This document shows, in pieces, positions 18,677-59,345 of a stretch of 60,490 nucleotides of DNA (position 1 is its first letter; each line of letters begins with the position of its first letter). The notes below the pieces were generated by a model. It was not told the origin of the DNA. It did not search any database and was given only the letters and a program-made list of their open reading frames with translations. The position numbers and the translations under genes were made by a program. Source of the stretch: a virus (taxonomy: Duplodnaviria; Caudoviricetes); the IMG/VR virus record IMGVR_UViG_3300035181_000419, positions 1-60,490 of that record, one strand, 5' to 3'.

Positions 18677-19068
18677 AGTTTGCGGCTCCCAGTGGCCTTG
18701 TTGACCTGATCACGGATCGTGGGAACCTTGGAATAGATCATTCGCGCGTTCTCTGGGGAGAACTCCAGTTCCTCACCCTTCCAGGCCATGTTCTTCCACC
18801 CAGTGGTGCAGACGACCAGCAGATCCAGGAAACTTTCCCGGTTCTGCTGGGCGTCAAACTCTGGAATGACCATCTCCCCATCCACCTTCGTCATTTCCTT
18901 GAAACGGAGCGCCTGCTGCTTATCCAAGCAAGCCTGGGCAGCGGTGGAGTCCGTGCCAACCACGAAGATGGAGACATCTGTGGGCTCCCCAGTTACGGGG
19001 TGCTTGATGACGACTTCAGCCGGAATGTTGGCTTTATCGGAGGTGTAGTTGAAAAGGTCCAGAGGCAT
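18661..19068 (-). CDS. Tail assembly chaperone G
   Basis: HPVTGE, TTGWKN, between tail tube and tape measure. Confidence 0.85.
   Translation of the reverse strand: MPLDLFNYTSDKANIPAEVVIKHPVTGEPTDVSIFVVGTDSTAAQACLDKQQALRFKEMTKVDGEMVIPEFDAQQNRESFLDLLVVCTTGWKNMAWKGEELEFSPENARMIYSKVPTIRDQVNKATGSRKLFFKD
18670..18676 (-). other. Programmed -1 frameshift slippery site T TTT TTC
   Basis: AAA CTT TTT TTC AAG GAC TGA; -1 frame joins downstream chaperone ORF. Confidence 0.8.
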
Positions 19069-26572: not shown

Positions 26573-27916
26573 TCAGCCGTAGTAAGTCTTAGTGACAGAA
26601 AGACTCTGCCCGCCAATAAAACGATAGACAATGTAGTATCCAAGTCCATCCGATAAGTGGGTCAGTTTCGCGTCCTGATGCTTATCAATCTCGCCACTGC
26701 CACCTTCAAGCAGCCGCACACCGTCCAAATCGCGCGATGTCATGGGGGCTCGGCTCGGGTCACAATAGAGATGCCTCTCTCCTACGACATTCAGAATGCG
26801 GCTGTTCATGCAGTTCACCCTCGCGCGCTCAGTGGGATTCGCACGAGGCACAAAATACATGAATCGTTCTCCAAAGTGCGGTTTAAGCACCGACCTGACC
26901 AGATCCCAATCAGAACCCTGGGTCGCCGACGTCTTTCTGTTCCCTCCGGTGGCGTCGCCATACACATGAACTTCACCCTGGTGCTCGCCCCACACTTCAA
27001 TGAGTTTCCGGCATACGGCCACGGTATTAGAATTCTGAGGTATGTAAACCTCGCCGATAACCTTAGTTCCGACGAGCCCGTTCGGGAGGATCCCCTCCTG
27101 GGCAACGACCGCAACGCCCGGATCCACATTGAAATCAAAGCAGAACGCGATCGGAGCCTTTGGATCGTAATCCAGTCTAGCTTTGTTCGCGTCGGTATAG
27201 TTGTAGTAGGCCCTTCCAACGAAGTTGACAAAGGATCCCTCGTATTCCTGTTGGAAGGTAAGCTCGTCCATGTCACGCTTAGCCGACTCAATCGTCTTCG
27301 CGTCTAAGACCTCAGAACTCTTCCAGTGGTAGTAACCCCACTCGCTCGCATCTCCGAACTCAATCATCTGTGCTTTGGCATACTCGGCGATGTCGTAGTA
27401 GTGATTTCTTCCTTCAGGCACGCCGATCAGATCACACCAGCCCTGCCGGTCAGCCAGTGCAGGCCGGACGTTCGCGTTCCAGGCCGACGCCTTCATGTTG
27501 CCGTATTCATCAAGGATCCCGCCGTCCCAGGGCGATCCTTCAATGCGCTCGGGCTTGTCCATGCCCACGACCATGATGGTCGAATTCATAATGGTGGTGA
27601 TGGAAAGCTCTGTTTCTGAGATCCCACGGGGGGCGACCAGCCGCTTCGGCACCAAGAGCTTCAGATCATTCCAATAGATGCGCTTGGCCTGATCCCGAGT
27701 GGGCGCCCCGCAGAAGTATCGTGGATCCGGAAAGTTGCTCGCTCCAGGCATCCCGGGTGGCATGAGCGCCCGCAGCACGAGTTTCCGCTTTGCGTTCTCT
27801 GTCTTCCCCGATCGTCGCCCCGCAGGCACCACATTGAACCTGTGGGGGGAGTTCGCATACTCCATCTGTGGCTTGATCTCGCGCAGTGGAGTCCAACGAG
27901 CGGGGAGGCTGAGCAT
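26573..27916 (-). CDS. terL: Terminase large subunit
   Basis: Walker A GRRSGKT, Walker B ILDEY, RNase H-like DFNVDP and HLSDGLGY. Confidence 0.95.
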   Translation of the reverse strand: MLSLPARWTPLREIKPQMEYANSPHRFNVVPAGRRSGKTENAKRKLVLRALMPPGMPGASNFPDPRYFCGAPTRDQAKRIYWNDLKLLVPKRLVAPRGISETELSITTIMNSTIMVVGMDKPERIEGSPWDGGILDEYGNMKASAWNANVRPALADRQGWCDLIGVPEGRNHYYDIAEYAKAQMIEFGDASEWGYYHWKSSEVLDAKTIESAKRDMDELTFQQEYEGSFVNFVGRAYYNYTDANKARLDYDPKAPIAFCFDFNVDPGVAVVAQEGILPNGLVGTKVIGEVYIPQNSNTVAVCRKLIEVWGEHQGEVHVYGDATGGNRKTSATQGSDWDLVRSVLKPHFGERFMYFVPRANPTERARVNCMNSRILNVVGERHLYCDPSRAPMTSRDLDGVRLLEGGSGEIDKHQDAKLTHLSDGLGYYIVYRFIGGQSLSVTKTYYG

Positions 27917-27930
27917 CGGCAGCCTACCCG

Positions 27931-28476
27931 CTACTCGCCGCCGGGCGCCGCGCCCTCGGCATCTGCTTCTTCCTGAAGCCTCCGCTTCACGAGGTAGGCA
28001 TTGTAGTCAGTCTCCTTACCAGACTGTTTCATCGCCTGATACAGGAAGTCTCGAACCGCGGTCGCTCCATCGTTGTCGCCCTTGGGGGCCTGATCCATAC
28101 CGAGGAACTTGGACCGTCGGTCAGAAATCTTCAGGAGGATGTCAGCGGACTTACTATCCTTGGCCGTGGCCCAATGAATCTTATGGAGCGCGTCCAGGCG
28201 GCTGAGCTCCAGGACCATCACTTCATCAAGCGTCTCCTGAAGCTCCTTGTGCAGAAGCTCCAGGCCCGTCTTCACAAGTTCCCTAGCCATGACGGTGCCA
28301 ATTCCCATGATAGCACCGATTTCCATGTAGTCATGGCCGTCCCGACGGAGCTGCATGGCTTTGAGCACTCGGAGCGAAACTCCCAGGGAGGCTTCGTCCA
28401 CGAACTCAAACACGTCCACATCTGGCGCATCGGGGGGAATTTGCAGGGGCTCCGGTTCTTTCCTAGTCTTCGCCAT
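27931..28476 (-). CDS. terS: Terminase small subunit
   Basis: HTH (G.DY.EIG..MGI), LELSRLDAL, DRRSKFLGMD; upstream of TerL. Confidence 0.8.
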   Translation of the reverse strand: MAKTRKEPEPLQIPPDAPDVDVFEFVDEASLGVSLRVLKAMQLRRDGHDYMEIGAIMGIGTVMARELVKTGLELLHKELQETLDEVMVLELSRLDALHKIHWATAKDSKSADILLKISDRRSKFLGMDQAPKGDNDGATAVRDFLYQAMKQSGKETDYNAYLVKRRLQEEADAEGAAPGGE

Positions 28477-28602
28477 GCTTGGATCCTCTGTAGTCCAGTG
28501 CCAAGTGTAGGGCTGATTGGTTGCGCGAGCAAGCCTTTATGTTCGATCCTCAGTATTTTGCGATTCCATTTGTGAGAGATATCATGAACTGGGATCTCTG
28601 TG

Positions 28603-28682
28603 GGAATAGAAACTGGGCTTCTCCGTGGTTCTATGTAGGAATAGAAACTGGGATTCTCCGATCTCTGGGATTCTCCGATCTC
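28603..28682. repeat. Short GA/TC-rich direct repeats
   Basis: GGAATAGAAACTGGG x2; CTGGGATTCTCCGATCT x2. Confidence 0.8.
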
Positions 28683-28801
28683 TGGTGCGGCGTGAACATT
28701 CCGAACACCAGCATAGATGCACCCCGAGGTGTGCGGAGTATTAGCTCCTCAGTGCTGCGAGACCAGGAGCGCGGAGCCGCCATAATGGCACTGAATGGGC
28801 A

Positions 28802-28895
28802 TATGCTTATATACCTATATACCCGTATGCTTATACACCCACCTTACACATATAATTATATGCACATATGCTTATACACCTACTATGCACATATA
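28802..28895. repeat. AT-rich short repeats
   Basis: TATGCTTATA(T/C)ACC x3; TATGCACATAT x2. Confidence 0.8.
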
Positions 28896-28939
28896 GCTAT
28901 ATAACTACATGCACAGTAAGGCATACTGTAGCCTAAAGC

Positions 28940-28965
28940 AATGCCCAGCGCATAGGCTGGGCATT
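28940..28965 (-). terminator. Hairpin after island gene
   Basis: AATGCCCAGC-N6-GCTGGGCATT. Confidence 0.6.
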
Positions 28966-28983
28966 GGTTGCCTTGCGGCTGTG

Positions 28984-29484
28984 CTAGGCAGGCACGCTAA
29001 GGGTGATTACCTGCTTTTGCCACGCGCACCTAACGTCACCCGCGTTAATGCTAAACCACGCGCCCGTGGCCGGGTGCTGGGCCGCAAGGCCCCGCACCTT
29101 GCACTGGCCGCTGGCCTGGGCCTTGGCCTGCGCGGGCAGGGTGCAGGCCAGCACGGCGCCCACGGTGCAAGGCTGGCCGTTGCTGGCAAGCTGGCCCATG
29201 GCCTGCAAAATGGCGTTGTGCCCGGCGCTGCGCACGCTACCGTTGGCAGGCACGGGCACGGGGCCAGTGGCCACCAGCAAGCCATGCGTGGGCATGGCGC
29301 CCCCGCAGAGCTGGTGCATGAGGGTGGCCTGGGCCTGCCTGCTACTGGCACCCTGCAACGGCGTGCTGGGCGTGGCGGGCACCGGCACGGCGGGCACGGC
29401 GGGCGCCTTAACGGCGGGCGTGGTGGTGGCGGTGGTGGTAGCCTTGGCGGCCTTGGCGGTGGTGGTGGTGGGCTTGGTAGCCAT
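28984..29484 (-). CDS. 166-aa island protein (0 Glu, 1 Asp): T/A/K/P tail plus putative DNA-binding domain paralogous to 41417 and 56100
   Basis: ATG 29484 with AAAGGGG RBS, own promoter and hairpin; TV...D....ITL pattern. Confidence 0.75.
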   Translation of the reverse strand: MATKPTTTTAKAAKATTTATTTPAVKAPAVPAVPVPATPSTPLQGASSRQAQATLMHQLCGGAMPTHGLLVATGPVPVPANGSVRSAGHNAILQAMGQLASNGQPCTVGAVLACTLPAQAKAQASGQCKVRGLAAQHPATGAWFSINAGDVRCAWQKQVITLSVPA

Positions 29485-29531
29485 TGTGTACCCCTTTGGG
29501 TATGGGCCGGGCGGCATTGCCGGGCTTGCAT

Positions 29532-29561
29532 AGTATAAGCATTGCCCATGCCAAAGTGCAA
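29532..29561 (-). promoter_or_regulatory. Promoter of island gene
   Basis: TTGCAC-N18-TATACT. Confidence 0.65.
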
Positions 29562-29724
29562 GGTGCTGTGTTTGCAGCACTTAGCTATATTACCGCCGTG
29601 GCATAGTGCCGCATTGCGGCATAGCATAAAGGCCCGTTTGCCGCTAAGTGTAGCAATAGCATAACTTAACCTGGTGCCGCGTTGGGGCTATGCTATGCCG
29701 CATTGCGGCACCCGCCCACACGGC

Positions 29725-29853
29725 TCGCCCGTAGCAGCTTTCGTGCCAATTCGCCCTTAGCATCTTTCGTGCCAATTCGCCCTAAGCAGCTTTCGTGCCA
29801 ATTCGCCCTAAGCAGCTTTCGTGCCAATTCGCCCTTAGCAGCTTTCGTGCCAA
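29725..29853. repeat. 26-bp tandem repeat, ~5 copies
   Basis: AGCAGCTTTCGTGCCAATTCGCCCT(T/A) at 29733, 29759, 29785, 29811, partial 29837. Confidence 0.95.
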
Positions 29854-30028
29854 AGCCATTCTTTTCGTTTTCGGTTTCTTTATTCTTTTCTTTTCGTAGT
29901 CTATGCCTCAGGCGCGGAGTCGCGCGGAGTCGCGCAGAGTCCCGCTCGAGCGCCCGCGTGTGAGCTCAACCCGTGAGCTCCTCGGCTCCTCGAGCGAGCG
30001 CCCGCGTGTGAACTCCGCGATCTGTGAT

Positions 30029-30108
30029 CCTGAGTCGCGCAGAGTCAGCCAAAAGATGCTCAAATAAGGAGTCCCCTAAGGGACTCCTCGCGTGCTCGCG
30101 TGTGAACT
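30029..30108. repeat. 80-bp dispersed repeat with terminator hairpin (copy 2 at 30412-30491)
   Basis: CCTGAGTCGCGCAGAGTCAGCCAAAAGATGCTCAAA...GGAG(T/C)CCCCTAAGGGACTCC...GCGTGTGAACT. Confidence 0.9.
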
Positions 30109-30308
30109 CAGTTCCAATTCCCGTAGGCACGTCGCTCAGCTTGCTCTATCGCGCGCTGCCACATCTGGTCTATGAAGTCGCGTAATCGCTGATGCCCTGA
30201 TCGCTTGGCGCGGATTTTCCTTGATTCTCCGGCACACAGCCGCTTGCAGAGGATGTTTCCTGTGTAGGGGTGGCGGGGGAGGCGGCGAGTGTGGGTGGGG
30301 GTGGCCAC
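30108..30308 (-). CDS. Small basic hypothetical protein (66 aa)
   Basis: GTG with AAAGGAG RBS between repeated promoter and terminator. Confidence 0.65.
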   Translation of the reverse strand: MATPTHTRRLPRHPYTGNILCKRLCAGESRKIRAKRSGHQRLRDFIDQMWQRAIEQAERRAYGNWN

Positions 30309-30354
30309 TGTAGGCTCCTTTGGGTTGTGACAGGCACCCTTGCCTGGTATGTAT

Positions 30355-30430
30355 AGTATAGGGCCTATGCAGCTCAAATGCGCCTCAAAGTTTAATCAAA
30401 GATTTTCGAGCCCTGAGTCGCGCAGAGTCA
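30355..30430 (-). promoter_or_regulatory. Repeated phage promoter (58-bp copy at 30901-30958; related at 31920-31966)
   Basis: CTTTGATTAAACTTTGA-N24-TATACT. Confidence 0.75.
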
Positions 30431-30490
30431 GCCAAAAGATGCTCAAACAAGGAGCCCCCTAAGGGACTCCATGCGCGCTCGCGTGTGAAC

Positions 30491-30697
30491 TTAGTTTTTC
30501 GGATAAACCTTGATGCCGTCAACGTAGACAGCTTCAACATCGTGCTCGAATCCCGGTCCGGGGTTATTCACCAGACTATGAATCACATCCAGCTCCCTAG
30601 GATCCAAGAACGCGGACCACGCGGGGAGACCGTTGGCGAAGAAAGGGCTGGGAGTCTCGGGAACTCCGGGCTTACGAGTGATTTGGACGTGTGCCAT
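30491..30697 (-). CDS. Hypothetical protein (68 aa)
   Basis: MAHVQITRK..., AAGGTG RBS, ends at repeated terminator. Confidence 0.6.
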   Translation of the reverse strand: MAHVQITRKPGVPETPSPFFANGLPAWSAFLDPRELDVIHSLVNNPGPGFEHDVEAVYVDGIKVYPKN

Positions 30698-30698
30698 G

Positions 30699-30836
30699 TC
30701 AGCCCACCTTGACCAGACGCCGCGCGATGCGGGGGGAGTTGCCGCAGGCGATGAGCCCGCAGAAGAGATACGAGCAAGCCAGTGCCCAGACGGCGACGGG
30801 CCGGGCAACGCGGACAGTGCAGTGGAACTTGGACAT
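30699..30836 (-). CDS. Small hydrophobic protein (45 aa)
   Basis: MSKFHCTV..., GGGGG RBS downstream of repeated promoter. Confidence 0.5.
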   Translation of the reverse strand: MSKFHCTVRVARPVAVWALACSYLFCGLIACGNSPRIARRLVKVG

Positions 30837-31070
30837 TGTGGACCCCCAGGGGCTGGATGGCGGCACCGTTGCCGCTGGTATAAGTATATAGCCCGCGCCA
30901 CTCAAATGCACCTCAAAGTTTAATCAAAGATTTTCGAGCCCCGAGTCGCGCAGAGTCAAGGTAAATATTCTCAAAACAAGGAACCCTTGAAGTCTCCTTG
31001 CGTAGATCTCGGTGCCGAGCCCCCTAGATGCCTGAGATGAAAATGTCTCGGGGGAGTTCGGTGGATTGGC

Positions 31071-31289
31071 TCATGGCTGCCTCGGGATAATGCTGACCAG
31101 GGTGCCACCGTCCACGAGGGTGCCTTTCTCGATCAGGTGTTTGGGGATCATGAGGACAGGGGTGAGCAGTATCTTACCCTCCTCGATGACCTCCATGGCC
31201 AGGATGTCACCCGGTTGAACTCCGGTCTCTGGAGGCAGCGTGATGCGCTTGCGTGAGTCCGTGGTGAGCTGGAACTTCCTAGGCTTCAT
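31071..31289 (-). CDS. AbrB/MazE/SpoVT-type DNA-binding protein
   Basis: TDSRKRITLP...GVQPGD.....EEGKILLTP; GAGGAG RBS. Confidence 0.8.
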   Translation of the reverse strand: MKPRKFQLTTDSRKRITLPPETGVQPGDILAMEVIEEGKILLTPVLMIPKHLIEKGTLVDGGTLVSIIPRQP

Positions 31290-31458
31290 GGGATCTCCTC
31301 ATGTGAATGATACATCGAGTGAGGTGGTCGTAAAACCAGGCCCCTCTGCGCCTCGAAGTGGGGCCCTGACCGCTACCACCTAGGCATGGGGGCTCGAGGA
31401 GCGTAGAGCGTGGCCCAGAGCTGTCTGGGCCACGTTCTGGGTGCGGTGGCGGGGCTGG

Positions 31459-31779
31459 TTAGGGCTGCTCCGGCGTCGAATCCGGCTCCGGTTCCGTCTC
31501 CGGGGCCTCGTTGTTCTCAGGCTCGGGGCGGATGGGCACGTAGCGGATGGGCTCGAGCGGCGCACAGGAGATGTGGTTGATCTTGCATTCTTCAATCCAT
31601 GCCCCAGCCCACGAGTAACAATACTCCAGCTCCTGTTTCTTGAGAGATTCTCCCACGAGTCTCACGGCCTCGCCCAGAGCCTGGGCATTCGTTTCTCCAG
31701 CGGTGTGGACGTCAAGCTCCAGTTCAAACTTGACACGCACTCGGGTCTTGATCTTCTCATTCCACTCGGAAGGTTTCAT
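31459..31779 (-). CDS. Hypothetical protein with acidic Pro/Glu tail
   Basis: ATG overlaps upstream stop (ATGA). Confidence 0.6.
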   Translation of the reverse strand: MKPSEWNEKIKTRVRVKFELELDVHTAGETNAQALGEAVRLVGESLKKQELEYCYSWAGAWIEECKINHISCAPLEPIRYVPIRPEPENNEAPETEPEPDSTPEQP

Positions 31780-31883
31780 CGGGACAGCTCCGCTGCGAGG
31801 GCCAGCGTGAAAGCGCTGGCGAGGGTTGCGAGGATGATGCCTGAGAGCCAGGCTTTGAGAACGCGAGTTTGTGCCCTTGGCAT
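31776..31883 (-). CDS. 35-aa membrane peptide (not in track)
   Basis: MPRAQTRVLKAWLSGIILATLASAFTLALAAELSR; GGAGG RBS after promoter. Confidence 0.55.
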   Translation of the reverse strand: MPRAQTRVLKAWLSGIILATLASAFTLALAAELSR

Positions 31884-32025
31884 GATAGCCTCCGTGTGCA
31901 GGGTGGCCCTGCACCTATAAGTATAGTGCTCGGTGCCTCAATTGCAAGCTCAAAGTTTAATCAAAGTTTGGCTCGTCACTAAGAGTCGCGTGGAGTCAGA
32001 TTGAATGAATATTCTAGCGGAGATT

Positions 32026-32148
32026 GTCGGTAAAGAGCGGAGTTCGTGGACTCGTGGATCTCCGCGTGTGAACTCAAGTCGCGTCTGTAAAGAGCGGAAT
32101 TCTTTGAGTCTCGGATCTCCGCGTGTGAACTCCAGTCGCGTCGGTAAA
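32026..32148. repeat. 57-bp tandem repeat, ~2.1 copies
   Basis: GTAAAGAGCGGA...GGATCTCCGCGTGTGAACTC.AGTCGCG. Confidence 0.85.
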
Positions 32149-32534
32149 TTAAGGACTGGGATCTCTGTATTATAGCGAAAATGAGCGAAAATGGATTGAG
32201 GGATGAACGTGGAAACTCGGATCTTTGGCCCGATTTATGGAGTAGAAAACACAGATTTTGTGTGGCTCGGCTCTTTGTGCTCAGATCGCTCATCGTTCAG
32301 AGAACATAGTCAACTCGGAAGGATTCCGAATTTTGCATAACTCGGAATCGAGAATCACACCGCCTTTTGGGGGGAGGATTATGGCGGCGCCGGAGATCGG
32401 AGAAGCGAAGAATCTTGGCGAAGATCTGGGCGCTTAACAGAATCTTATCGGGGAATCTTATCGGTGGATCTTATCAATTACTCATTATGGGCAGGCATAC
32501 TCCGTGCCAAAAGGCATCAGAGATCCAAGTTTCC

Positions 32535-34141: not shown

Positions 34142-34888
34142 ATGGATGTGAAATCCGTTACATGCGAGGCCCTTAGGGACATGCTGGCCGACCCCCGGAG
34201 GTGGTCCACCGACGATGACGGCCCCAAGGTGAGTCTCGCCGGAGTTAACCTCTCCAGGATGAATCTCGCAGGAGTGGACCTCAGCAGGGCGGACCTCTCT
34301 GGTGCGGATCTCGCTGGAGCGAACCTCTCCAGGGCGAACCTCTCAGGAGCTAACCTCGTGAGGGCGGACCTTTGCGGGGCGGACCTTTGCGGGTCTAACT
34401 TCTCCAAGGCGAACCTCCTTGGGGCTAACCTCTTTGGGGTGGACCTCTATGGGGCGAACCTCTGCGGGGCGGACCTCTCGGAGGCTAACCTCATCAGGAC
34501 CGACTTCACCAGGGCTGACCTCTCCGATGCGGATCTCTACGGAGCGGATATATCGTGGGCGGACTTCTACAAGACGAACATCACCAGGACGGCCTTCTAC
34601 GGGTCTAAATACTGCGGTATGACGTTTGCGGCGGTCGTCGTCATGGTTGGCCTCTACCGGTATCAGTGCTGGGCTGTCGTCACCACCGACGGCACCCCGT
34701 TCGTTCGCATGGGGTGCCTCTGGCATTCCGTGGCCGAATGGGACGCCATCGGCATCCGCAACAGCAACACCACTGAGTTCCCCGATGACGGCAGCGACAT
34801 CTCCGAGGAACGCGCGGAGGCCTTTGAGCTTATGCGGGCCAAGGCGCTCCGTATGGCTGAGGCACACAGGAAGCTGGGTGGGCTGTAG
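34142..34888 (+). CDS. Pentapeptide-repeat protein with C-terminal domain
   Basis: A(D/N)LxG repeats; C-terminal VRMGC....EW. Confidence 0.9.
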
Positions 34889-36192: not shown

Positions 36193-36249
36193 ATGGCATG
36201 GCAACCGGGCCAGCCCTCGCCCCTAACCGGCCCCACGGAGGAAATCGGA

Positions 36250-36876
36250 ATGAAGCCCTATACACGCAAAGAAATCGAGGCCTTCCAGGCTGACCCCAAA
36301 GGGTGGCTCAGGAAGAATGGCGGCTACAGGGCAGATCTTTCCGAGGTAGACCTCCATGACGCAGACCTCTCAGGTGTGGACCTCACCAGTGCAGACCTCA
36401 CCAACGCGAACCTCAGAGGGACGAACCTCTATGGGGCAAACCTCCGCGGGGTGGACCTCCGCGAGGCGGATCTAGCCGGGTCGGACCTCACCAGGGCCAA
36501 CCTCCATGGAGCGAACCTCTATGGTGCGAACCTATCTATGGTAAACCTCTCCGGATCAAACCTATCCGGGTCAAACCTATCAGGGGCTGACCTAGCCGTG
36601 TCGGATCTCTACGGCGCGGACCTTTATGGTGCAGACCTTACCGGGGCTGACCTTACCGGAGCAGGCCTCGCCGGAGCTGGCCTAACCGGGGCGGATCTCA
36701 CTGAGGCGGACCTAACCGGGGCAGACCTCACCAGGGCTGACCTCACCAGGGCGAATCTCCACGGAACGAACCTCTATGGAGCGAACCTCTATGGAGCGAA
36801 CCTCACAGGAGCGGACCTAACCGGGGCCAACCTCTATGGGGCGAACCTCCCTATGACAGAGCTCACCAGGCTCTAA
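36250..36876 (+). CDS. Pentapeptide-repeat protein
   Basis: ~35 A(D/N)LxG repeats; GGAGG RBS. Confidence 0.9.
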   Translation: MKPYTRKEIEAFQADPKGWLRKNGGYRADLSEVDLHDADLSGVDLTSADLTNANLRGTNLYGANLRGVDLREADLAGSDLTRANLHGANLYGANLSMVNLSGSNLSGSNLSGADLAVSDLYGADLYGADLTGADLTGAGLAGAGLTGADLTEADLTGADLTRADLTRANLHGTNLYGANLYGANLTGADLTGANLYGANLPMTELTRL

Positions 36877-39223: not shown

Positions 39224-39242
39224 CACCTGCCTACCGGGCACA

Positions 39243-39289
39243 CTTTGACTAAAGGTTGAGCCAGCCTCTGGCCCAACGAGCCTTATACT
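39243..39289 (+). promoter_or_regulatory. Direct-repeat-type phage promoter
   Basis: CTTTGACTAAAGGTTGA-N24-TATACT. Confidence 0.7.
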
Positions 39290-39325
39290 TATTGCACGGG
39301 CGCCCAGGCCCCACAAGGAGCAAGC

Positions 39326-40210: not shown

Positions 40211-40455
40211 TTGCCGTGTCAACCCCCGAGCAGTTGCTTATGGAAGCCAAGTTGCGCAGTGGGGCACCCGTGGCCCGCCTTACCCTGAAGCATGTCAGGC
40301 GCGTGCCGGATGGCCCCTGGTGGCCCCTCTACCAGCTTACCCTATACGGTGCCCTGCACCGCACGCTTAACGCGCAGGATGGCTTGTTTTTGGAAGTGTT
40401 GTTTGACCTTTACGCCCCGAAGGGCGCTATCATAAGGAGGTATAGATGGAGATGA
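40207..40455 (+). CDS. Hypothetical protein (GA/TC-poor)
   Basis: ATGA coupling; overlaps possible promoter. Confidence 0.5.
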   Translation: MIAVSTPEQLLMEAKLRSGAPVARLTLKHVRRVPDGPWWPLYQLTLYGALHRTLNAQDGLFLEVLFDLYAPKGAIIRRYRWR

Positions 40456-41282: not shown

Positions 41283-41287
41283 ATAAA

Positions 41288-41333
41288 GTTTGATGCAACT
41301 TTGACTTGCGCCCGCTTTGTTGAAGCATATGCT
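41288..41333 (+). promoter_or_regulatory. Direct-repeat-type phage promoter
   Basis: GTTTGATGCAACTTTGA-N23-TATGCT, also TTGCGC. Confidence 0.7.
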
Positions 41334-41416
41334 TGTGTATGTAGGGCACCGGCAGCGTCCCGCGGCCACCCCTTCTAACCAGTGGCTCACGCCACCCTGT
41401 TACAAAGGAGCCTATC

Positions 41417-44087: not shown

Positions 44088-44285
44088 ATGGATAAGATCT
44101 TCCACATCCACGGGTGGGCGTCAGACGGAAAGCCGCTTATTCGGCATGGGACTGAGATCATGGGCGCGGCTCTCGGTAAGAAAGACCGAGCAACTCTGGC
44201 TTCGCTTAAAGTTGGGGAATCCTTCACCCCTTTGTTCACAACCCTGTCAGGTAAGATCGCCTACCGTGTGGAGCGTGTCCAGTGA
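44088..44285 (+). CDS. Hypothetical protein
   Basis: GAGGGG RBS. Confidence 0.6.
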   Translation: MDKIFHIHGWASDGKPLIRHGTEIMGAALGKKDRATLASLKVGESFTPLFTTLSGKIAYRVERVQ

Positions 44286-44911
44286 AGACTCCCTCTGTCC
44301 ATGAACAAATCAGAGCCTATGGGGGAGAGACACTGTCAAATGAACAGATCATTGATCTGTTGCTCCCAGGTATGGGGCCGGGGCATCTGGGCGCATGGCG
44401 CCTCAGCGAACTCATTAGCATGAGTGGACAGCAGCTTGTGGAAGAGTGCGAGCTAACGAAGCTCCAAGCATCGCGGATCGTAGCTCTTGGTGAATTCGTC
44501 CGCAGGTGTGGCGCCCCCTCAAAACACGCTTGCATCAATACTCCCCGGTTGGCCGGAGAATATCTACTTCCGAAAGCTAAGGGTTTGACAGAGGAGGTAT
44601 TCGGTGTCGTGTGCCTTAACTCCAGAGCGCGCGTTATATCTGATCGCATTGTCTCAAAGGGAACGTCTACGGGGACTCTCGTTGGACCACGCGAAGTTCT
44701 TAGAGAAGCGCTTCTTAGAGGGGCCGTGTCCGTGCTCGTGTGGCACAACCATCCGAGCGGCGATCCAAGCCCTAGCCGAGAAGACATATCTCTCACGCGA
44801 CGTCTCCGCGCAGGATGCGATGCTATCGGAGTTCCTCTTGCGGACCACATCATTGTGGGCGAAGACACCTACCACAGTTTCAGATCCTCGGAGGGCTGGG
44901 ATGTTAGATGA
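44282..44911 (+). CDS. radC: RadC-family JAB domain protein (full length)
   Basis: HNHPSGDPSPSRED...DHIIVG plus N-terminal helical part. Confidence 0.92.
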   Translation: MKTPSVHEQIRAYGGETLSNEQIIDLLLPGMGPGHLGAWRLSELISMSGQQLVEECELTKLQASRIVALGEFVRRCGAPSKHACINTPRLAGEYLLPKAKGLTEEVFGVVCLNSRARVISDRIVSKGTSTGTLVGPREVLREALLRGAVSVLVWHNHPSGDPSPSREDISLTRRLRAGCDAIGVPLADHIIVGEDTYHSFRSSEGWDVR

Positions 44912-45314: not shown

Positions 45315-45428
45315 AGCGGGGCCGCAGAGCGCGTCAGGGTTGGGCCATGGCTGGGCGGCGTGCCCAACATGGCCCAAAGCCTTGAGCGGGCGCCTGAGCG
45401 CATCGGGGCGCGGTCCCATTTGCGGCCC

Positions 45429-45457
45429 TTGCGCTTTACCGTGGCAGGGCTTAACAT
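45429..45457 (+). promoter_or_regulatory. Promoter for primase-helicase
   Basis: TTGCGC-N17-TAACAT. Confidence 0.55.
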
Positions 45458-45493
45458 TACCTTCCGGCCATTTATGCAGCTATAGGGGTTAGC

Positions 45494-47539: not shown

Positions 47540-47844
47540 GAGTTCCGCCATCCGCTGAAGTGTCAGAGATCAGAGAAGCCTACTGGAATATCGCCAAGGC
47601 AAACCACCCCGATCTAAATCCTAGTGGGGCAGATATCATGTCTGCTGCCACAGAAGCCTACGGCGTTCTATCTGATGATAAGAAACGCCTCCGCTATGAC
47701 AGGTTGCTGGACTTTACCATGACTAAGTGCCCTGAGTGCTCTGGTCGTGGAACGACTCTGCGAGTGACTGGCTTCAGTGCAGTGGGCGCTCGTATTGAGA
47801 AATGTAAAGCCTGCAACGGGGAAGGATATGGAAATAAAGGCTAA
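47512..47844 (+). CDS. Mini-DnaJ: J-domain plus CxxCxGxG zinc finger
   Basis: YYKVLGV, HPD, EAYGVLSD, CPECSGRG, CKACNGEG. Confidence 0.88.
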   Translation: MQENYYKVLGVPPSAEVSEIREAYWNIAKANHPDLNPSGADIMSAATEAYGVLSDDKKRLRYDRLLDFTMTKCPECSGRGTTLRVTGFSAVGARIEKCKACNGEGYGNKG

Positions 47845-53804: not shown

Positions 53805-54278
53805 ATGCTGCTACAAAAGATCAACGAAGCTCGCAGTTACCCGTGCTGCGAAGTGATGCAGCCCCCCGGCCACTACCGCGTTGATGTCGCAATCACGCCC
53901 AAGGTCAAGAACCTGCCCCAACCTGTGACAATGCACGTCTATAAGTGTCACAAGTGCTACCGTAAGATGCTGACAGACCATGACTTAAGTATCTTAGAAG
54001 TGAGTGGCGTCCAGAACCCGACAGTGGCGTGGGCTAGGAGCCACGGCATCAGAGCCACTAAGCTCCAAGGTCAGGGTAATCGCTCACTTCCTGACTACGA
54101 GTTTTGGATCAAAGGCGGAAAGCCCAAATTGATGGAGTTCAAGCGCCCCGGAGAACTTCCGACCGCGCTCCAGGAAGACACCATCGCGAAGTTTGCCGCT
54201 GACGGCTACGTGGTTGAGATACACGATGACAAGCACTCCGCCATCGCTTCCCTGCAAAGGTCACTAGATGCTCGTTGA
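53805..54278 (+). CDS. VRR-NUC nuclease with N-terminal Cys domain
   Basis: LPDY...MEFKRPG..PTALQ. Confidence 0.8.
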   Translation: MLLQKINEARSYPCCEVMQPPGHYRVDVAITPKVKNLPQPVTMHVYKCHKCYRKMLTDHDLSILEVSGVQNPTVAWARSHGIRATKLQGQGNRSLPDYEFWIKGGKPKLMEFKRPGELPTALQEDTIAKFAADGYVVEIHDDKHSAIASLQRSLDAR

Positions 54279-55743
54279 AACCGCCCGCCCCGCAGTTCCC
54301 TGGATTCCTCACAACTATCAGAAGAACGTGATGAAGTTCATGCTAGAGAACGCGTCGGCGGGGCTGTTGCTAGACCCCGGCCTTGGGAAGACTTCATGCA
54401 CCTTTGGGACGCTGAAGGTTCTCAAGGCAAAGAGCATGATGAAATCTGCTTTGGTCATCGCACCACTACGAGTCTGCTACGCAGTATGGCCCCGTGAGGC
54501 CGAAAAGTGGAAAGACTTTAATGACATGAAGGTGGTGGTGCTACATGGAAAAGACAAAGAAGCCAATCTCTCAGTTAAAGCAGACATCTATGTCATCAAT
54601 CCGGAAGGGCTGGAATGGCTATTCTCTAATCCACGCTTTAAGAAATTAGCCCCAGATATTTTGGTGATTGATGAGAGTAGCCGGTTCAAGAATACGCAGG
54701 CCAAGAGGTTCAAGGCGCTAAAACCTTGGCTGAAGACATTCCGAAGGCGCTACATTCTGACCGGAACACCTGCCCCCAATGGACTACTGGACCTATTTGG
54801 GCAGATCTATATCCTAGACCTGGGAAAGTCCTTTGGCCCCTACATCACAAAGTTCAAGAACGACTTCTTTTATCCTTCTGGGTTTGGGGGGTTCACTTGG
54901 CGTCCGAAGAATGATACAGCAGAGCGCATCAATGAACTGCTCAAGCCGCTGACCATTCGTCTTGAGGATAAGGACTACCTAGAAATTCCGCAGCTTGTGA
55001 CTAGCCCAGAAACCGACATTATCATTGATCTGCCAGATGATGCTCGGAAAATCTATCATGACCTTGAAAAGGAAATGATAGCCAAACTATCCGAGACCGA
55101 AGTTCTGACAGCGATGAGCGCGGCAACCGCAAGTATGAAGTGCAGGCAGCTCGCGAATGGTTGCGTCTACAGACAACTGGAATACGCGCCCGCTATGAAG
55201 GAGGATAGGTGGCACTATGTCCATGACGAAAAGATTAAGGCGCTTGAAGATTTTGTTAGTGAACTTAATGGGAAACCTCTGCTTGTCGCCTACGAGTTCG
55301 TTCATGACATGGAAAGGATTCGTAAGGCGTTTCCAACTGCGACGTTCGTTGCGGACATCAAGGCATCCAAATTCGCTGATGTTGAGCGTAGATGGAACGC
55401 GGGGGAAATTGAAATGCTGGTGGGGCACCCCGCCTCGATTGGTCACGGGCTCAATCTGCAGGAAAGCGGAAACCACATCCTCTTCTACGGCCCCACCTGG
55501 GATTTGGAGCTATACGACCAGTTCATTAAGCGCATCCTGCGACAAGGCAACAAAAGTTCCCACGTCTTCGTGTATCATATCCTAGCAAGAAATACCGTAG
55601 ATTTCGCTGTGATGCGAGCGCTTCGGGGGAAGGCCAAGGTTCAGAGCAGCCTACTCGAGTCGCTTAAGGACTACGCATCTGAGGTTGAGTTCAATCCAAC
55701 CGGAAGCGAAGCGGCACGTGCGATCATGAAGAATCTAATTTAG
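54268..55743 (+). CDS. SNF2-family helicase
   Basis: DPGLGKT, IDESS, LTGTP, GHGLNLQ, QFIKRILRQG. Confidence 0.93.
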   Translation: MLVETARPAVPWIPHNYQKNVMKFMLENASAGLLLDPGLGKTSCTFGTLKVLKAKSMMKSALVIAPLRVCYAVWPREAEKWKDFNDMKVVVLHGKDKEANLSVKADIYVINPEGLEWLFSNPRFKKLAPDILVIDESSRFKNTQAKRFKALKPWLKTFRRRYILTGTPAPNGLLDLFGQIYILDLGKSFGPYITKFKNDFFYPSGFGGFTWRPKNDTAERINELLKPLTIRLEDKDYLEIPQLVTSPETDIIIDLPDDARKIYHDLEKEMIAKLSETEVLTAMSAATASMKCRQLANGCVYRQLEYAPAMKEDRWHYVHDEKIKALEDFVSELNGKPLLVAYEFVHDMERIRKAFPTATFVADIKASKFADVERRWNAGEIEMLVGHPASIGHGLNLQESGNHILFYGPTWDLELYDQFIKRILRQGNKSSHVFVYHILARNTVDFAVMRALRGKAKVQSSLLESLKDYASEVEFNPTGSEAARAIMKNLI

Positions 55744-56551: not shown

Positions 56552-57508
56552 ATGAAAACTGTGGTGTTCAGTTTCAATCCTCCTACACCCGACGGCTCGT
56601 TGGCAAACGCGCGAACTGCGACTTTTATTGCTGACACGCTCGATGTCCCACTTATTTGTGATAAGAATATCGCAGATGTTGAGGCTGATGTTCTCATTCT
56701 TGTGGCGGGTGTTTTCATGTATTGTCGTTGTCTGCCCGAAGTCGGCGCCGCTGTAGAAAAAGCCAAGCGCGTCGTCTGGGCACAGAATGACTACACCATC
56801 AAGCCCCCGCTTGCGGACGGCATTGCCGAAAGCCCGTTTAGAAAAGCATTCAGGAACCGTAGGTCTGCTGGTCTGCCCGATGTTGATTTCTGGACCACAA
56901 TGAAGAAGGCCTCAGAAAAGACGCCCTTCAGTGCGTGGGTGAACTGGAATCAGATGGCGTATGAAACCCCCATCAGTGACGAAGCTTTTGAGCTGAATCG
57001 TGAGCACGCCATTGAATCATTCATCTACTACGGGGCCGATAGGCTGGGGCGCCGAGACTACTTTGACTGGTATTTCAATGGACAGAAGGCGCCATTGACT
57101 ATCAGTTCCTTTAGTAAGTCAATGTCTCGCTACGAAGATGATGCCGATATCATTCCTGCATTCAAGCGAACTGAGTTCTTTGACCGATTGGGCCAGTATT
57201 CCGCCGGGCTATACCTGGAGGACAAACGCTCGCACGCCGAGTTCACCAGCCCTGCCACGCGGTTCTATGAGATGCTCCGCGTGGGGGTTGCCATGTTCTT
57301 TCAGCCCCAGGCGGTTCCCATGCTGGCGAAGGCTGGGTTCGATGTTGCGCCCTTTGTTGCCACGCCGGGGCAGCTACCAGACGCGCTCAGCAGGGCGCCA
57401 GAGGTGGCTCGCCAGCAACGGGCACTGTGGGGTGGTAGGCCCTACCTTCAGCACCTAAAGGAACAGCTTTTGCGAGAGCACGCACGCATCCAGGAGGGTG
57501 TCAAATGA
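56552..57508 (+). CDS. GT-B glycosyltransferase resembling T4 DNA beta-glucosyltransferase
   Basis: WAQND (cf. BGT YLFTD), FIYYGADRLGRR (cf. VIYGGSFRSGQR), LYLEDK...ATRFYEML (cf. LIIGDK...TLRVWETM); comparison from memory. Confidence 0.72.
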   Translation: MKTVVFSFNPPTPDGSLANARTATFIADTLDVPLICDKNIADVEADVLILVAGVFMYCRCLPEVGAAVEKAKRVVWAQNDYTIKPPLADGIAESPFRKAFRNRRSAGLPDVDFWTTMKKASEKTPFSAWVNWNQMAYETPISDEAFELNREHAIESFIYYGADRLGRRDYFDWYFNGQKAPLTISSFSKSMSRYEDDADIIPAFKRTEFFDRLGQYSAGLYLEDKRSHAEFTSPATRFYEMLRVGVAMFFQPQAVPMLAKAGFDVAPFVATPGQLPDALSRAPEVARQQRALWGGRPYLQHLKEQLLREHARIQEGVK

Positions 57509-58353
57509 GTAATCCTATGCGCGTAGACGACCTGTGCTATTGGATCAAAGAGCGCCATTCCATCTATACCAAGAAGCAGGCTGGGGAGCCAAAGCCTTGG
57601 ACCCAGGACCCAATCTTGCAAAGTTATCGGTTCTGCAATGTCTATCGAAATCTCGATACCGTGACAGAATGGATCCACGCAAACTGGATGAACCGCAGCG
57701 ATCCGAATATGTTCGTGGCTATGGCTATCGCACGGTTCGTGAACTGGCCAGACACCCTTGAAGAAATGGGGTTTCCGTTGCCGTGGGATCCCGAGCATTT
57801 TGTATCGGTCCTACATGATCGCCGGCGCAGGAACGAGAAGGTTTACAGTGGGGCCTACATCGTATCCACTAACGGCCACGCCATGGATAAGGCCGAGTAT
57901 CTCGCCAACTTCGTCATCCAGCCCATCTGGGACAACCGCATTGACGTTCGCCCAAAGAAGGGTGACACTCTTGAGTCCTTCTACCAGCGGCTTGTCAAGT
58001 TCGATGGGCTGGGCAGCTTCATGGCTGGGCAGGTGATAGCTGATCTGAAGTATGACAAGTTCAGCCCACTTTACGAAGCAAGCGATGAATTCAGTTGGGC
58101 GACCAGCGGGCCTGGGAGTCGGCGAGGCATGAACCGTGTCATCCAGCGGCCTCCTGCAGCGCCTATCACTGAGCGGGTGTGGAGGGAGAACCTGACCATC
58201 CTTCACCAAGCCGTTCAGGACAGGCTCGCCCCTTTGGGTATGCCGCCAATCTGCGCCCAGGACCTCCAGAACGCATTATGTGAGTTCGACAAATTCGAGC
58301 GCGTCCGGCTTGGGGAGGGCACCCCGCGCTCCGGATACCCTGGGAGGGGCTGA
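57505..58353 (+). CDS. aGPT-Pplase1-like (5-hmdU hypermodification-associated, glycosylase-like helical) protein
   Basis: ERHSI...PKPWTQDPILQSYRFCNVYRNLD, GLGSFMAGQVIADL, GPGSRRG, QNALCEFDK. Confidence 0.85.
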   Translation: MSNPMRVDDLCYWIKERHSIYTKKQAGEPKPWTQDPILQSYRFCNVYRNLDTVTEWIHANWMNRSDPNMFVAMAIARFVNWPDTLEEMGFPLPWDPEHFVSVLHDRRRRNEKVYSGAYIVSTNGHAMDKAEYLANFVIQPIWDNRIDVRPKKGDTLESFYQRLVKFDGLGSFMAGQVIADLKYDKFSPLYEASDEFSWATSGPGSRRGMNRVIQRPPAAPITERVWRENLTILHQAVQDRLAPLGMPPICAQDLQNALCEFDKFERVRLGEGTPRSGYPGRG

Positions 58354-59345
58354 TGGAATTCCGTGCAAGAAACCTCACGCAGGTGATGGCCGCGTGCCTT
58401 CCTAAACTTGTGGAGGGAACCGCAGAGTCCTCGCGTAACGGGCCGGTGATCTTAATTGACGAACCGGTGATCCTCACTTACGAGAAACCTTGCGAGCGAG
58501 TGCTGTTCTCACCCACACGCGACGCTAACCCATTCTTTCATCTAATGGAAGCTCTATGGATGCTGGCGGGGCGCGACGACGTTGAGTTTCCCACCAGGTT
58601 CAATTCAAAGTTCAGCCAGTTCTCAGATAATGGTGTGACCTTCAATGGAGCCTACGGTTTCAGATGGCGCAAGTATTTTGACACAGATCAGATTGAACTG
58701 GCTGTCAAAGAACTAACGGAGAACCCAGGTTCAAGGCGCGTAGTAATCGGGATGTGGGATCCGATGTGCGATCTTGGATCCACGAGCAAAGACATCCCGT
58801 GCAACACGCACATCTATCTGAGCATCCGGGAGAACTCTGGTCTGCTGGATATGACAGTGTGCAACCGAAGCAACGATGCAATCTGGGGGGCCTTTGGCGC
58901 GAACGCTGTTCACATGAGTATTCTTCAAGAATACCTGGCGGCATCAATTGGCGTGGGCGTTGGGCGCTACCGACAGGTGACAAACAATCTCCACTTCTAC
59001 TCGGATACCTTCAGCGTGGAGAAACTATCACGCATTGCGGATGAGTGTGCATCAGACACGGCGTATTCACTAGGACGTGTCAGTCCTTATCCGCTGATCT
59101 CCATTTCCCCAGGCTGCTGGATGACTGAGCTCCGCGAGTTCCTGGCGAAGCCATCAATGAAGCCTGAGAACTACCACGATGGCTTTTTCGCCGAAGTGGC
59201 GGCCCCCATGTTCGCCGCTTGGGGGGAACGGAAGGCTAATGGGGACACGCATAAAATGAACCAGCTCATAGAAAGCATCGCCGCTTATGACTGGCGCGTG
59301 GCCTGCCGAGAATGGGTTGTCCGTAGGAGTAAGAAAGATGTATAA
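58353..59345 (+). CDS. Thymidylate-synthase homologue, probable dUMP hydroxymethylase
   Basis: RDANPFFH, SRRVV, KDIPCN, RSNDAIWGAFGAN (Asn = dUMP-type), NNLHFY. Confidence 0.85.
   Translation: MEFRARNLTQVMAACLPKLVEGTAESSRNGPVILIDEPVILTYEKPCERVLFSPTRDANPFFHLMEALWMLAGRDDVEFPTRFNSKFSQFSDNGVTFNGAYGFRWRKYFDTDQIELAVKELTENPGSRRVVIGMWDPMCDLGSTSKDIPCNTHIYLSIRENSGLLDMTVCNRSNDAIWGAFGANAVHMSILQEYLAASIGVGVGRYRQVTNNLHFYSDTFSVEKLSRIADECASDTAYSLGRVSPYPLISISPGCWMTELREFLAKPSMKPENYHDGFFAEVAAPMFAAWGERKANGDTHKMNQLIESIAAYDWRVACREWVVRRSKKDV

Follow-up and report, generated by a model that had tools for sequence, protein, structure and literature searches.

How does a conserved viral protein come to be almost devoid of acidic residues? 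The question is raised by P1, a 166-aa protein encoded on the minus strand of an uncultured virus (Duplodnaviria; Caudoviricetes; IMG/VR record IMGVR_UViG_3300035181_000419), which was analyzed over its entire 60,490 bp, hereafter the window. A sequence-only reading of the P1 gene had reported no Glu, a single Asp and Ser encoded only by AGY codons, and had proposed that P1 and two further proteins, P2 and P3 (Table 1), are winged-helix-like paralogues that would read, coat or activate modified DNA at various points of infection and whose composition is constrained by the chemistry of the DNA. Translation and codon counting bore out the composition: Ser is specified by eight AGC codons and one AGT, with no TCN, and the sole GAN codon is GAC. 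For a comparison set of 17 reference genes of the same genome, Asp and Glu together make up 10.7% of residues and TCN accounts for 65% of Ser codons. From these reference frequencies, the chance of one acidic residue or fewer in 166 is ~1e-7 (binomial arithmetic). As described below, this composition is caused by a rule that acts on the DNA, which excludes the dinucleotides GA and TC from the gene and from the non-coding sequence around it.

The P1 gene lies in an island largely free of GA and TC

The bias proved to be a property of the DNA that reaches beyond the P1 open reading frame (ORF) on both sides, a feature that the sequence-only reading missed. GA and TC dinucleotides occur at a mean of 26.1 per 200 bp across the genome (standard deviation 5.6), and few are found in an island that overshoots the ORF by ~190 bp downstream and ~240 bp upstream, both non-coding. 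The gaps between GA/TC dinucleotides within the island measure 405, 272 and 212 bp, compared with 58 bp for the longest gap elsewhere in the window. On the coding strand of the P1 ORF, GA is present once (observed/expected ratio 0.04) and TC three times (0.12), while the remaining 14 dinucleotides are all represented, and no other dinucleotide step, of the nine examined, has an outlier gap in the window. Since GA is the reverse complement of TC, the pattern is the exclusion of a single duplex step. The rest of the genome contains GA/TC at normal frequency (observed/expected 1.04-1.09), and the ratio for pooled intergenic sequence (1.03) rules out depletion as a trait of all regulatory DNA in this genome. 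Separately, four intergenic segments in the early region showed ratios of 0.35-0.48 (39224-39325, 40211-40445, 41283-41416 and 45315-45493), one of them directly upstream of the P2 gene.

We also recoded the five island proteins, of the window and of its four close relatives, with the codon usage of the genome. The recoded sequences carried 35-39 GA/TC dinucleotides (standard deviation ~4.5; minimum 20 in 5000 trials), and the five natural genes carry 4, 8, 0, 0 and 0. Because the recoded proteins give far more GA/TC than observed, the choice among synonymous codons and the junctions between codons must be constrained too. In a sequence of this kind, a GA or TC would arise from one third of the single-base changes that are possible. 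Asp and Glu (GAN codons), TCN Ser codons and NGA and NTC codons are thus lost as a consequence of the DNA-level GA/TC rule, and the acid-poor composition of P1 is caused by the DNA and not by the protein. The earlier proposal that protein composition is constrained by DNA chemistry is strongly supported, and narrowed to the GA/TC step, by the flanks, the codon junctions, the synonymous codons and the relatives described next.

The island is conserved among relatives and P1 is under purifying selection

Four close relatives were available from IMG/VR (L002-L005), with P1 79-87% identical and the large terminase (TerL) 97-98% identical to those of the window. Stretches with no GA/TC at all extend over 1042 bp in L004, 959 bp in L005 and 780 bp in L003, and the L002 island has 8 GA/TC in 870 bp. 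The island was also detected upstream of the terminase genes in more distant loci, L087, L012, L013, L015 and L014 (TerL identity 76%, 73%, 70%, 69% and 67%, respectively). Among these, L012 has 872 bp with zero GA/TC, L014 has 6 in ~600 bp, the island of L013 is leaky, and L015 (357 bp) and L087 (303 bp) have zero GA/TC up to the contig end. The contigs of L013, L015 and L087 end within the island gene, each at position 1; these ends are probably assembly breaks at the variable, low-complexity N-terminal region rather than genome ends. Among the 160 loci scanned, none with TerL identity of 62% or less was flagged for GA/TC, many of these loci being short and without the upstream region.

The exclusion persists although the sequence of the island changes quickly. 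Between close genomes, the island differs at 16-29% of nucleotides, compared with 5.6-9.3% for the adjoining putative small-terminase gene. The number of synonymous substitutions per site (dS) in P1 is 0.72-1.22, ~2.5-3 times higher than the 0.23-0.50 found for terL in the same genome pairs (comparison drawn from the window, L002-L005 and L008-L010). The island thus evolves faster than the neighboring genes. Its GC content also varies, from 0.52 to 0.64, across relatives with TerL identity from 98% down to 67%. We conclude that the DNA-level GA/TC rule is selected in its own right.

P1 itself is a genuine, conserved protein-coding gene under purifying selection. The ratio of nonsynonymous to synonymous substitution rates was 0.040-0.128 in 10 of 10 genome pairs (143 aligned codons), and third codon positions account for 109 of the 164 variable sites; both shifted frames gave a ratio >1.8. 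The reading frame is kept in all four close relatives despite whole-codon insertions and deletions in the N-terminus, and each of the four versions has 0 Glu and 0 Asp. The protein consists of a variable, T/A/K/P-rich N-terminus and a conserved C-terminal part of ~125 aa. The ORF is nested in a longer GTG-started frame (28984..29580), and the database carries a 103-aa call for the same gene (P0002). We prefer the 166-aa start because the ribosome-binding site and the MATK start are conserved. GC content reaches a local maximum over the ORF (0.68-0.74), where four frames out of six, two per strand, hold long ORFs (176-209 aa). Pfam, PHROGs and NCBIfam returned nothing usable for P1, P2 or P3, a tblastn search of 50,697 phage records with P1 yielded no more than a chance-level match (E 0.2), and ESM Atlas gave no usable match to P1 residues 60-166.

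The genome encodes a predicted thymidine-modification system

What chemistry could single out one duplex step? In the Pfam scan of 62 ORFs, the right end of the genome holds a thymidine-modification set: a 5-hydroxymethyldeoxyuridine (5-hmdU) DNA kinase, a ThyA homologue and an HD protein. The kinase is ~35% identical to kinases of the M6/YuA group. The ThyA homologue, which on its family matches is presumed to be a dUMP hydroxymethylase, scores below the NCBIfam ThyA equivalog cut-offs. The gene just upstream of the kinase encodes a protein resembling GT-B enzymes and T4 beta-glucosyltransferase. In ESM Atlas it showed feature scores of 0.96-0.98 and template-modeling (TM) scores of 0.67-0.78 to glycosyltransferase clusters, which is a lead rather than a test; no match was found in Pfam, PHROG, NCBIfam or PDB sequences, nor any Pplase2-like match. 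For thymidine modification, a kinase is not usually paired with a glycosyltransferase-like neighbor. The 62 ORFs showed no domain of the deazaguanine pathway, of Mom or of a methyltransferase, leaving T modification as the sole recognized DNA-modification system of the genome.

Sequence context matters for such systems. For M6, ViI and phiW-14 phages, restriction-resistant sites implicate TG or TC (PMC6449724), and in phage SH-Ab 15599 it is mainly TG, and less TC, that is modified (PMC13458397). In such phages, 5-hydroxymethyluracil (5-hmU) is described as converted "in sequence-specific contexts" (PMC8989533), and the exact hypermodification motifs were "not yet known" in 2018 (PMC5889632).

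We compared the distribution of the kinase with that of the island. All five island-less relatives tested lack the kinase, at least three of these being complete, and the window genome was positive in the same search. Of the island-bearing relatives, four contigs were tested and none carried the kinase, a count that is uninformative because these contigs are fragments, 22-56% complete. A kilobase-scale island free of any dinucleotide step was not detected in M6, in SH-Ab 15599 or in the kinase-bearing contigs G009-G013 (G010 and G013 complete; G009, G011 and G012 fragments). G010 (L176) is a complete 73.8-kb viral contig with a kinase 41% identical to that of the window; its 204-bp AT-rich divergent intergenic region (18711-18915) has 2 internal GA/TC, where the expected longest gap is ~72 bp.

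A proposed explanation based on the target of thymidine hypermodification

A strand-symmetric two-base rule points to an agent that reads duplex DNA at dinucleotide resolution, and since T before C is missing on both strands, the island can be read as a target-free patch that stays unmodified. The phage would replace T by 5-hmU, which the 5-hmdU DNA kinase, the glucosyltransferase-like enzyme or both would then hypermodify, only at T preceding C. With no TC site to offer on either strand, the island would be the sole part of the packaged genome free of bulky modification. We give an even chance to this proposal, in which a dinucleotide-specific thymidine hypermodification finds no target in the island and leaves it unmodified. 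The result would be a self-contained cassette, combining binding sites with one small DNA-binding-like protein of the P2/P3 family, that could be read by proteins unable to cope with modified DNA. The region looks the part, with promoter-like and operator-like elements, a gene, a hairpin and repeats beside the packaging genes. Candidate reasons for keeping it blank would be early expression, recognition of an origin or of a packaging site, autoregulation, or the binding sites of P1 itself. In siphoviruses, the DNA packaged last enters first. Should packaging begin in the interval from the island to the terminase genes and run into the latter, the island would be packaged last and would enter first, as would suit a pioneer gene.

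A further step, which we regard as doubtful though worth stating, is that the island is a hard-wired, 'epigenetically blank' cassette, with the acid-free winged-helix-like paralogue acting on, or from, the blank DNA. Selection would have cleared every TC/GA step out of ~1 kb, placing the unit of promoter, operator, gene and terminator, together with the array of AT-rich repeats, beyond reach of the phage's own TC-specific enzymes. The gene product may, for example, be the first protein made on entry or a factor that marks the origin or packaging region.

Several points weigh against the target-based explanation. The TC specificity is a prediction for an uncultured phage known from its sequence alone. 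The island is enriched in TG (observed/expected 1.77), which is the most frequently reported context, so the enzyme would have to be TC-only, and no TC-only enzyme of this kind is described in the literature examined. An unmodified island is clearly no general need of kinase-bearing phages, given that M6, SH-Ab 15599 and G009-G013 do without one at the kilobase scale. Because the island carriers are fragmentary and the kinase was not found on the four tested, its co-occurrence with the island rests on one complete genome. Finally, any other enzyme that reads the duplex would account equally well for a 2-bp avoidance that is symmetric between the strands.

Alternative explanations

The sequence-only reading had placed its emphasis on the protein, with selection for an acid-free, basic, DNA-coating polypeptide and the codon pattern as a secondary effect. 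In favor of this view, all five close homologues have 0-1 acidic residues, the L012 and L015 versions have none, and the N-terminus carries K/A/P repeats, including AAKAP four times in L005. However, the non-coding flanks are as free of GA/TC as the gene, and TCN Ser codons, NTC and NGA codons and junctions that place G before A or T before C are avoided though they encode no acid. In addition, the proteins of distant, leaky islands tolerate acids (two Asp and two Glu in L013, two Asp in L014). The GA/TC-free flanks together with the recoding test largely refute selection at the protein level, and we consider it very unlikely. We think no better of the chances of RNA-level avoidance, in which a transcript lacking GA and UC would escape an endoribonuclease. 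The entire transcription unit is indeed free of both dinucleotides, but two unrelated RNA dinucleotides would have to be avoided at once where one DNA step explains both, and the avoidance starts upstream of the likely promoter and continues beyond the terminator hairpin into the repeats rich in AT.

There is a small chance that the island shelters one critical cassette from a TC/GA-specific nuclease or double-strand DNA deaminase, of the host or of a competitor. TC-specific enzymes exist, among them T4 endonuclease IV and deaminases of the DddA and APOBEC types, and the avoidance is strand-symmetric, acts at the level of the duplex and is held by strong selection despite fast turnover. Against this, damage elsewhere in the 60-kb genome would still be lethal, leaving little gain from protecting 1 kb; the island is GC-rich, unlike the AT drift that a deaminase leaves; and the absence of the kinase from five of five island-less relatives points to the phage's own chemistry. 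A zone free of CRISPR (clustered regularly interspaced short palindromic repeats) protospacer-adjacent motifs or of restriction sites seems more remote still. Target-site avoidance is common in phages, but the avoidance here extends to all four NTC contexts and to the four GAN contexts rather than to one protospacer-adjacent motif or 4-6-bp site, and shielding 1.5% of the genome brings no obvious benefit. The GC peak over the ORF, with its long frames open in four of six, could suggest chance, a drift in composition or the recent import of a GC-rich fragment. We find this hardly credible: zero GA/TC in 1042 bp at ~0.125 per bp has a probability of ~1e-60 by arithmetic, and the conservation of the island, from 98% to 67% TerL identity while GC content varies, refutes it.

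P2 and P3 are homologous and P1 is a likely third member of the family

The proposal that P1, P2 and P3 are paralogues had been based on an alignment of their C-termini by eye. For P2 and P3 the alignment was upheld, and the two are homologous by BLASTP over the C-terminal domain (E 9e-7, 37% identity over 59 aa). The domain spans ~60 aa and comprises a G-[ST]-x-R helix, a TV-x-x-A helix, a [YF]-x-[IV] strand and the motif D-[IV]-x-F-A-x-x-N-G-x-I-x-L; no Pfam, PHROG or NCBIfam model represents this family. A profile of 14 P2/P3 relatives matched 218 proteins at E <= 0.001 among 1.84 billion, and no Pfam family covers the shared P2/P3 domains in the 70 of these that were scanned. One match from another virus, P0156 (671 aa), is a SNF2 helicase fused to a P3-type linker and C-terminal domain, which parallels the position of P3 right after a separate SNF2 gene in the window. 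K/A/P/T-rich low-complexity stretches are present in all three proteins and P3 is encoded directly upstream of the glycosyltransferase-like, 5-hmdU kinase and ThyA-like genes, both as the sequence-only reading had it.

For P1 the direct statistics are weak. BLASTP gave E 0.088 against P2 (28 aa) and E 0.58 against P3; hhalign gave E 0.19 for profile A1 against A2 and E 0.11 for A1 against A3, and an alignment of island proteins gave E 0.019 against P2/P3/L014 and E 0.0019 against A3, at 14.5% probability. The A3 hidden Markov model (HMM) placed P1 at rank 11 of 6221 sequences with E 4.9. None of these scores is significant, and every method picked the same P1 register as the alignment by eye.

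The link is positional and runs through L014. Its island protein (L014:1557-1961) begins MATK like P1, and its gene, in a GA/TC-poor island upstream of terS/terL, occupies the place of the P1 gene; the window, L012 and L014 share a start region that is conserved in the DNA. This protein matches P2 with E 2e-16 and P3 with E 3.7e-9 (BLASTP), scores E 9.3e-14 with a P2/P3 HMM built without L014, and was retrieved, as P0092 (E 1.7e-8), in the search of 1.84 billion proteins. By these sequence comparisons, the L014 positional orthologue of P1 belongs to the P2/P3 family. In addition, three of the four residues that are nearly invariant in the family (I65, G76, R79 and D119 of P2) have counterparts in P1: both BLASTP and hhalign pair G82, R85 and D150 with G76, R79 and D119, respectively. 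D150 is the sole acidic residue of P1, and Ile stands at this place in the four close relatives. The claim of three paralogues is thus borne out for P2 and P3, and for P1 paralogy is plausible by way of L014: likely, but not demonstrated. The presumed paralogues of P1 in the same genome are ordinary in composition.

The P2/P3 family was found in none of the five kinase-less relatives. Among four other kinase-bearing records, one had a weak match (M6, E 2.8e-4) and three had none. The M6 match, at NC_007809.1 37636-37860 (gp049 region), consists mostly of low-complexity linker and lies near the M6 modification genes.

The fold was described earlier as winged-helix-like. An AlphaFold2 model of P2 (36 sequences) has a mean predicted local distance difference test (pLDDT) score of 79, with values above 85 from residue 51 and for most of the C-terminal 90 residues. 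Foldseek of this model against the PDB gave 0 matches at E <= 0.001, and the best VIA-align score against 48,161 chains was Z 4.5. Chains containing winged helices (PriA, Cdc6/Orc1, ArsR, Fur-type, ScpB, the MCM C-terminus, Z-alpha, Rio2 and RRE) scored Z 2.3-3.7, where arrangements that arise by chance are frequent. The P2 model is confident and many winged-helix chains appear at low Z, but with a best Z of only 4.5 a winged-helix-like fold of P2 is no more than weakly suggested. The AlphaFold2 model of P1, from a 5-sequence alignment, gave no usable fold (pLDDT 34.8).

Elements of the island and organization of the genome

The features of the island and of the genes discussed are collected in Table 1. 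The borders of the island are sharp and flanked by repeats rich in GA/TC. Start regions resembling that of P1 are also present in L012 and L014. In the possible promoter, the -10 block TATACT is conserved in the aligned genomes and the -35 block matches at 3/6 positions only; a consensus promoter scan did not list the pair. The second copy of the palindrome lies within a block that is largely conserved in all five genomes, with two variable columns inside the palindrome. The scan for hairpins found the inner 5-pair core of the terminator-like structure (28957..28943), the full stem being read by eye, and hairpins occupy the same place in L012 and L014. The copy number of the AT-rich repeats varies among relatives, L003 having more copies, as does that of the 17-bp repeat, for which a packaging role is suggested by position alone. 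The 26-bp repeat is present in four of the five aligned genomes, and AT-rich sequence takes its place in L004. Upstream of the island, at 29900-30120, at least three iteron-like copies of GAGTTCACACGCGGGCGC each lie near a hairpin; the counterpart in L014 is AGAGGTCACACGCGGG, present three times.

Table 1. Positions of the P1 gene, the island and other features in the window
Feature	Position	Strand	Description
Large terminase (TerL)	26573..27916	-	tblastn against annotated large terminases, best 54.6% identity to MW202621.1
Putative small terminase	27931..28476	-	assigned by position only, directly upstream of TerL
17-bp repeat, 2.2 copies	28648..28685		GA/TC-rich, contains GATC; just beyond the island border, on the side of the putative small terminase
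GA/TC-free island	28793..29725		4 GA/TC dinucleotides in 932 bp, at 29005, 29036, 29308 and 29320
AT-rich tandem/iterated repeats (GTATATAAGCATAT-like)	28800..28935		inside the island; arrays at 28808-28823 and 28859-28915
Terminator-like hairpin	28940..28965	-	10-bp stem, 6-nt loop; after the P1 stop codon
P1 gene	28984..29484	-	166 aa with no Glu and one Asp; net basic (7 K and 4 R)
Shine-Dalgarno-like AAAGGGG	29491..29497	-	6 nt before ATG; conserved with the start codon in 5 aligned genomes
Possible sigma-70-type promoter	29532..29561	-	TTGCAC-18 nt-TATACT, read by eye; putative
15-bp palindrome TGCCGCAATGCGGCA, copy 2	29607..29621		operator-like; putative function
15-bp palindrome TGCCGCAATGCGGCA, copy 1	29696..29710		upstream island edge; less conserved in relatives
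26-bp tandem repeat, 5 copies	29725..29853		upstream island border; 95% matches, score 230
P2 gene	41417..41827	+	136 aa; disordered K/A/P-rich N-terminus, folded C-terminal domain
SNF2-family helicase	54268..55743	+	directly upstream of P3; PF00176, E 3.8e-25
P3 gene	55776..56480	+	234 aa; N-terminal domain, KP-rich linker, C-terminal domain shared with P2
GT-B / T4 beta-glucosyltransferase-like protein	56552..57508	+	318 aa, just upstream of the kinase
5-hmdU DNA kinase	57505..58353	+	PF18723 E 2.2e-44 (152 bits; cut-off 25); genome search E 5.8e-46
Thymidylate-synthase homologue, presumed dUMP hydroxymethylase	58353..59345	+	PF00303 E 2.4e-18; phrog_5131 E 5.5e-112

The Pfam scan revealed a siphovirus layout. 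The minus strand from 305 to 28476 is a structural and packaging block, with tail proteins, tape-measure, tail-tube, P22-type coat, a DUF4055 portal-like protein and TerL; the putative small terminase has no Pfam or NCBIfam match and an uninformative PHROG match (phrog_645). The plus strand from ~31.4 kb is an early and replication block, encoding two pentapeptide-repeat proteins, RadC, a primase-helicase, a DnaJ-like protein, ligase, PolA, a PD-(D/E)XK nuclease and the SNF2 helicase. The P1 gene and the island sit in the 3-kb divergent control region that separates the two blocks. The pentapeptide-repeat proteins (34142-34888 and 36193-36876; Pfam E 2e-52 and 7e-61) are possible DNA mimics, the DnaJ-domain protein (47512-47844) has a zinc-finger motif, and the RadC-like protein (44282-44911) is of the JAB type. 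The record is classed in IMG/VR as linear, without end repeats, and its sequence is known from assembled contigs of four DNA metagenome runs, with no RNA run listed as containing it. Megablast of 27500-32500 gave no match, and an Rfam scan of 28300-31600 gave two chance-level rows only (E 0.2).

Significance and comparison with known systems

What is known of the sequence motifs for thymidine hypermodification is approximate and comes from restriction patterns (TG or TC). A conserved, kilobase-scale region free of TC/GA in a kinase-bearing phage is a prediction of the target motif, made from sequence, and predicts in addition a region that the phage deliberately keeps unmodified. If this is true, the avoided dinucleotide would read out the target motif of the enzyme directly, and the protein family would be a natural experiment in folding without acidic residues. 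The persistence of a conserved, selected protein with 0-1 acidic residues indicates that a rule of DNA chemistry can override protein composition, and the acid-free state of P1 is useful for learning what folds tolerate. Searching for islands that lack a dinucleotide step is also a new and inexpensive way to screen uncultured viruses for context-specific DNA modification. Our literature search, which was limited and is no proof of absence, found no description of a target-free island in a hypermodified phage genome or of a protein made acid-free by a DNA dinucleotide rule.

The window shares the PF18723 kinase, the ThyA-like hydroxymethylase and the HD protein with the kinase-based hypermodification systems of M6, ViI, phiW-14, SP10 and SH-Ab 15599. 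It differs from these in that no Pplase2-type transferase was detected by sequence, a T4-beta-glucosyltransferase-like protein being encoded beside the kinase instead, and M6 and SH-Ab 15599 have no motif-free island. The context reported for M6, ViI, phiW-14 and SH-Ab 15599 is TG or TC (PMC6449724; PMC13458397).

The gene set also resembles that of a eukaryotic system, by analogy only. Kinetoplastids make base J with JBP1, which has a J-DNA-binding domain, JBP2, a SNF2 ATPase, and the glucosyltransferase JGT, and form hmU by means of a dioxygenase. The window has a SNF2 helicase, P3, a glycosyltransferase-like protein and hmU synthesis, and the SNF2 and P3-type domains are fused in P0156; here, however, hmU would be made at the nucleotide level by the ThyA homologue rather than by a dioxygenase. 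JBP proteins gave no sequence or fold match and are absent from the Foldseek and VIA-align rows for the P2 model. The first-step-transfer DNA of T5 and gene 0.3 of T7 exemplify early regions that enter first and carry anti-defense genes. The small, self-contained cassette beside the packaging genes, with its putative host-type promoter, is similar in arrangement, whereas the record is linear without end repeats and known from metagenome contigs alone.

When target sites of restriction or modification are avoided in phage genomes, a short recognition word is lost through selection, at a cost in coding freedom. The island is alike in purging a word at the expense of coding, and we class the finding as a variant of this phenomenon. 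Here, the word is a bare dinucleotide step, excluded from ~1 kb only and present at normal frequency elsewhere. Vertebrate CpG islands are likewise kilobase-scale patches around promoters that are free of the prevailing modification, but they keep their target sites and are protected in trans. If our proposal holds, the phage island would be a modification-free patch of similar size around a promoter, unmodified for want of target sites and thus hard-wired in its sequence.

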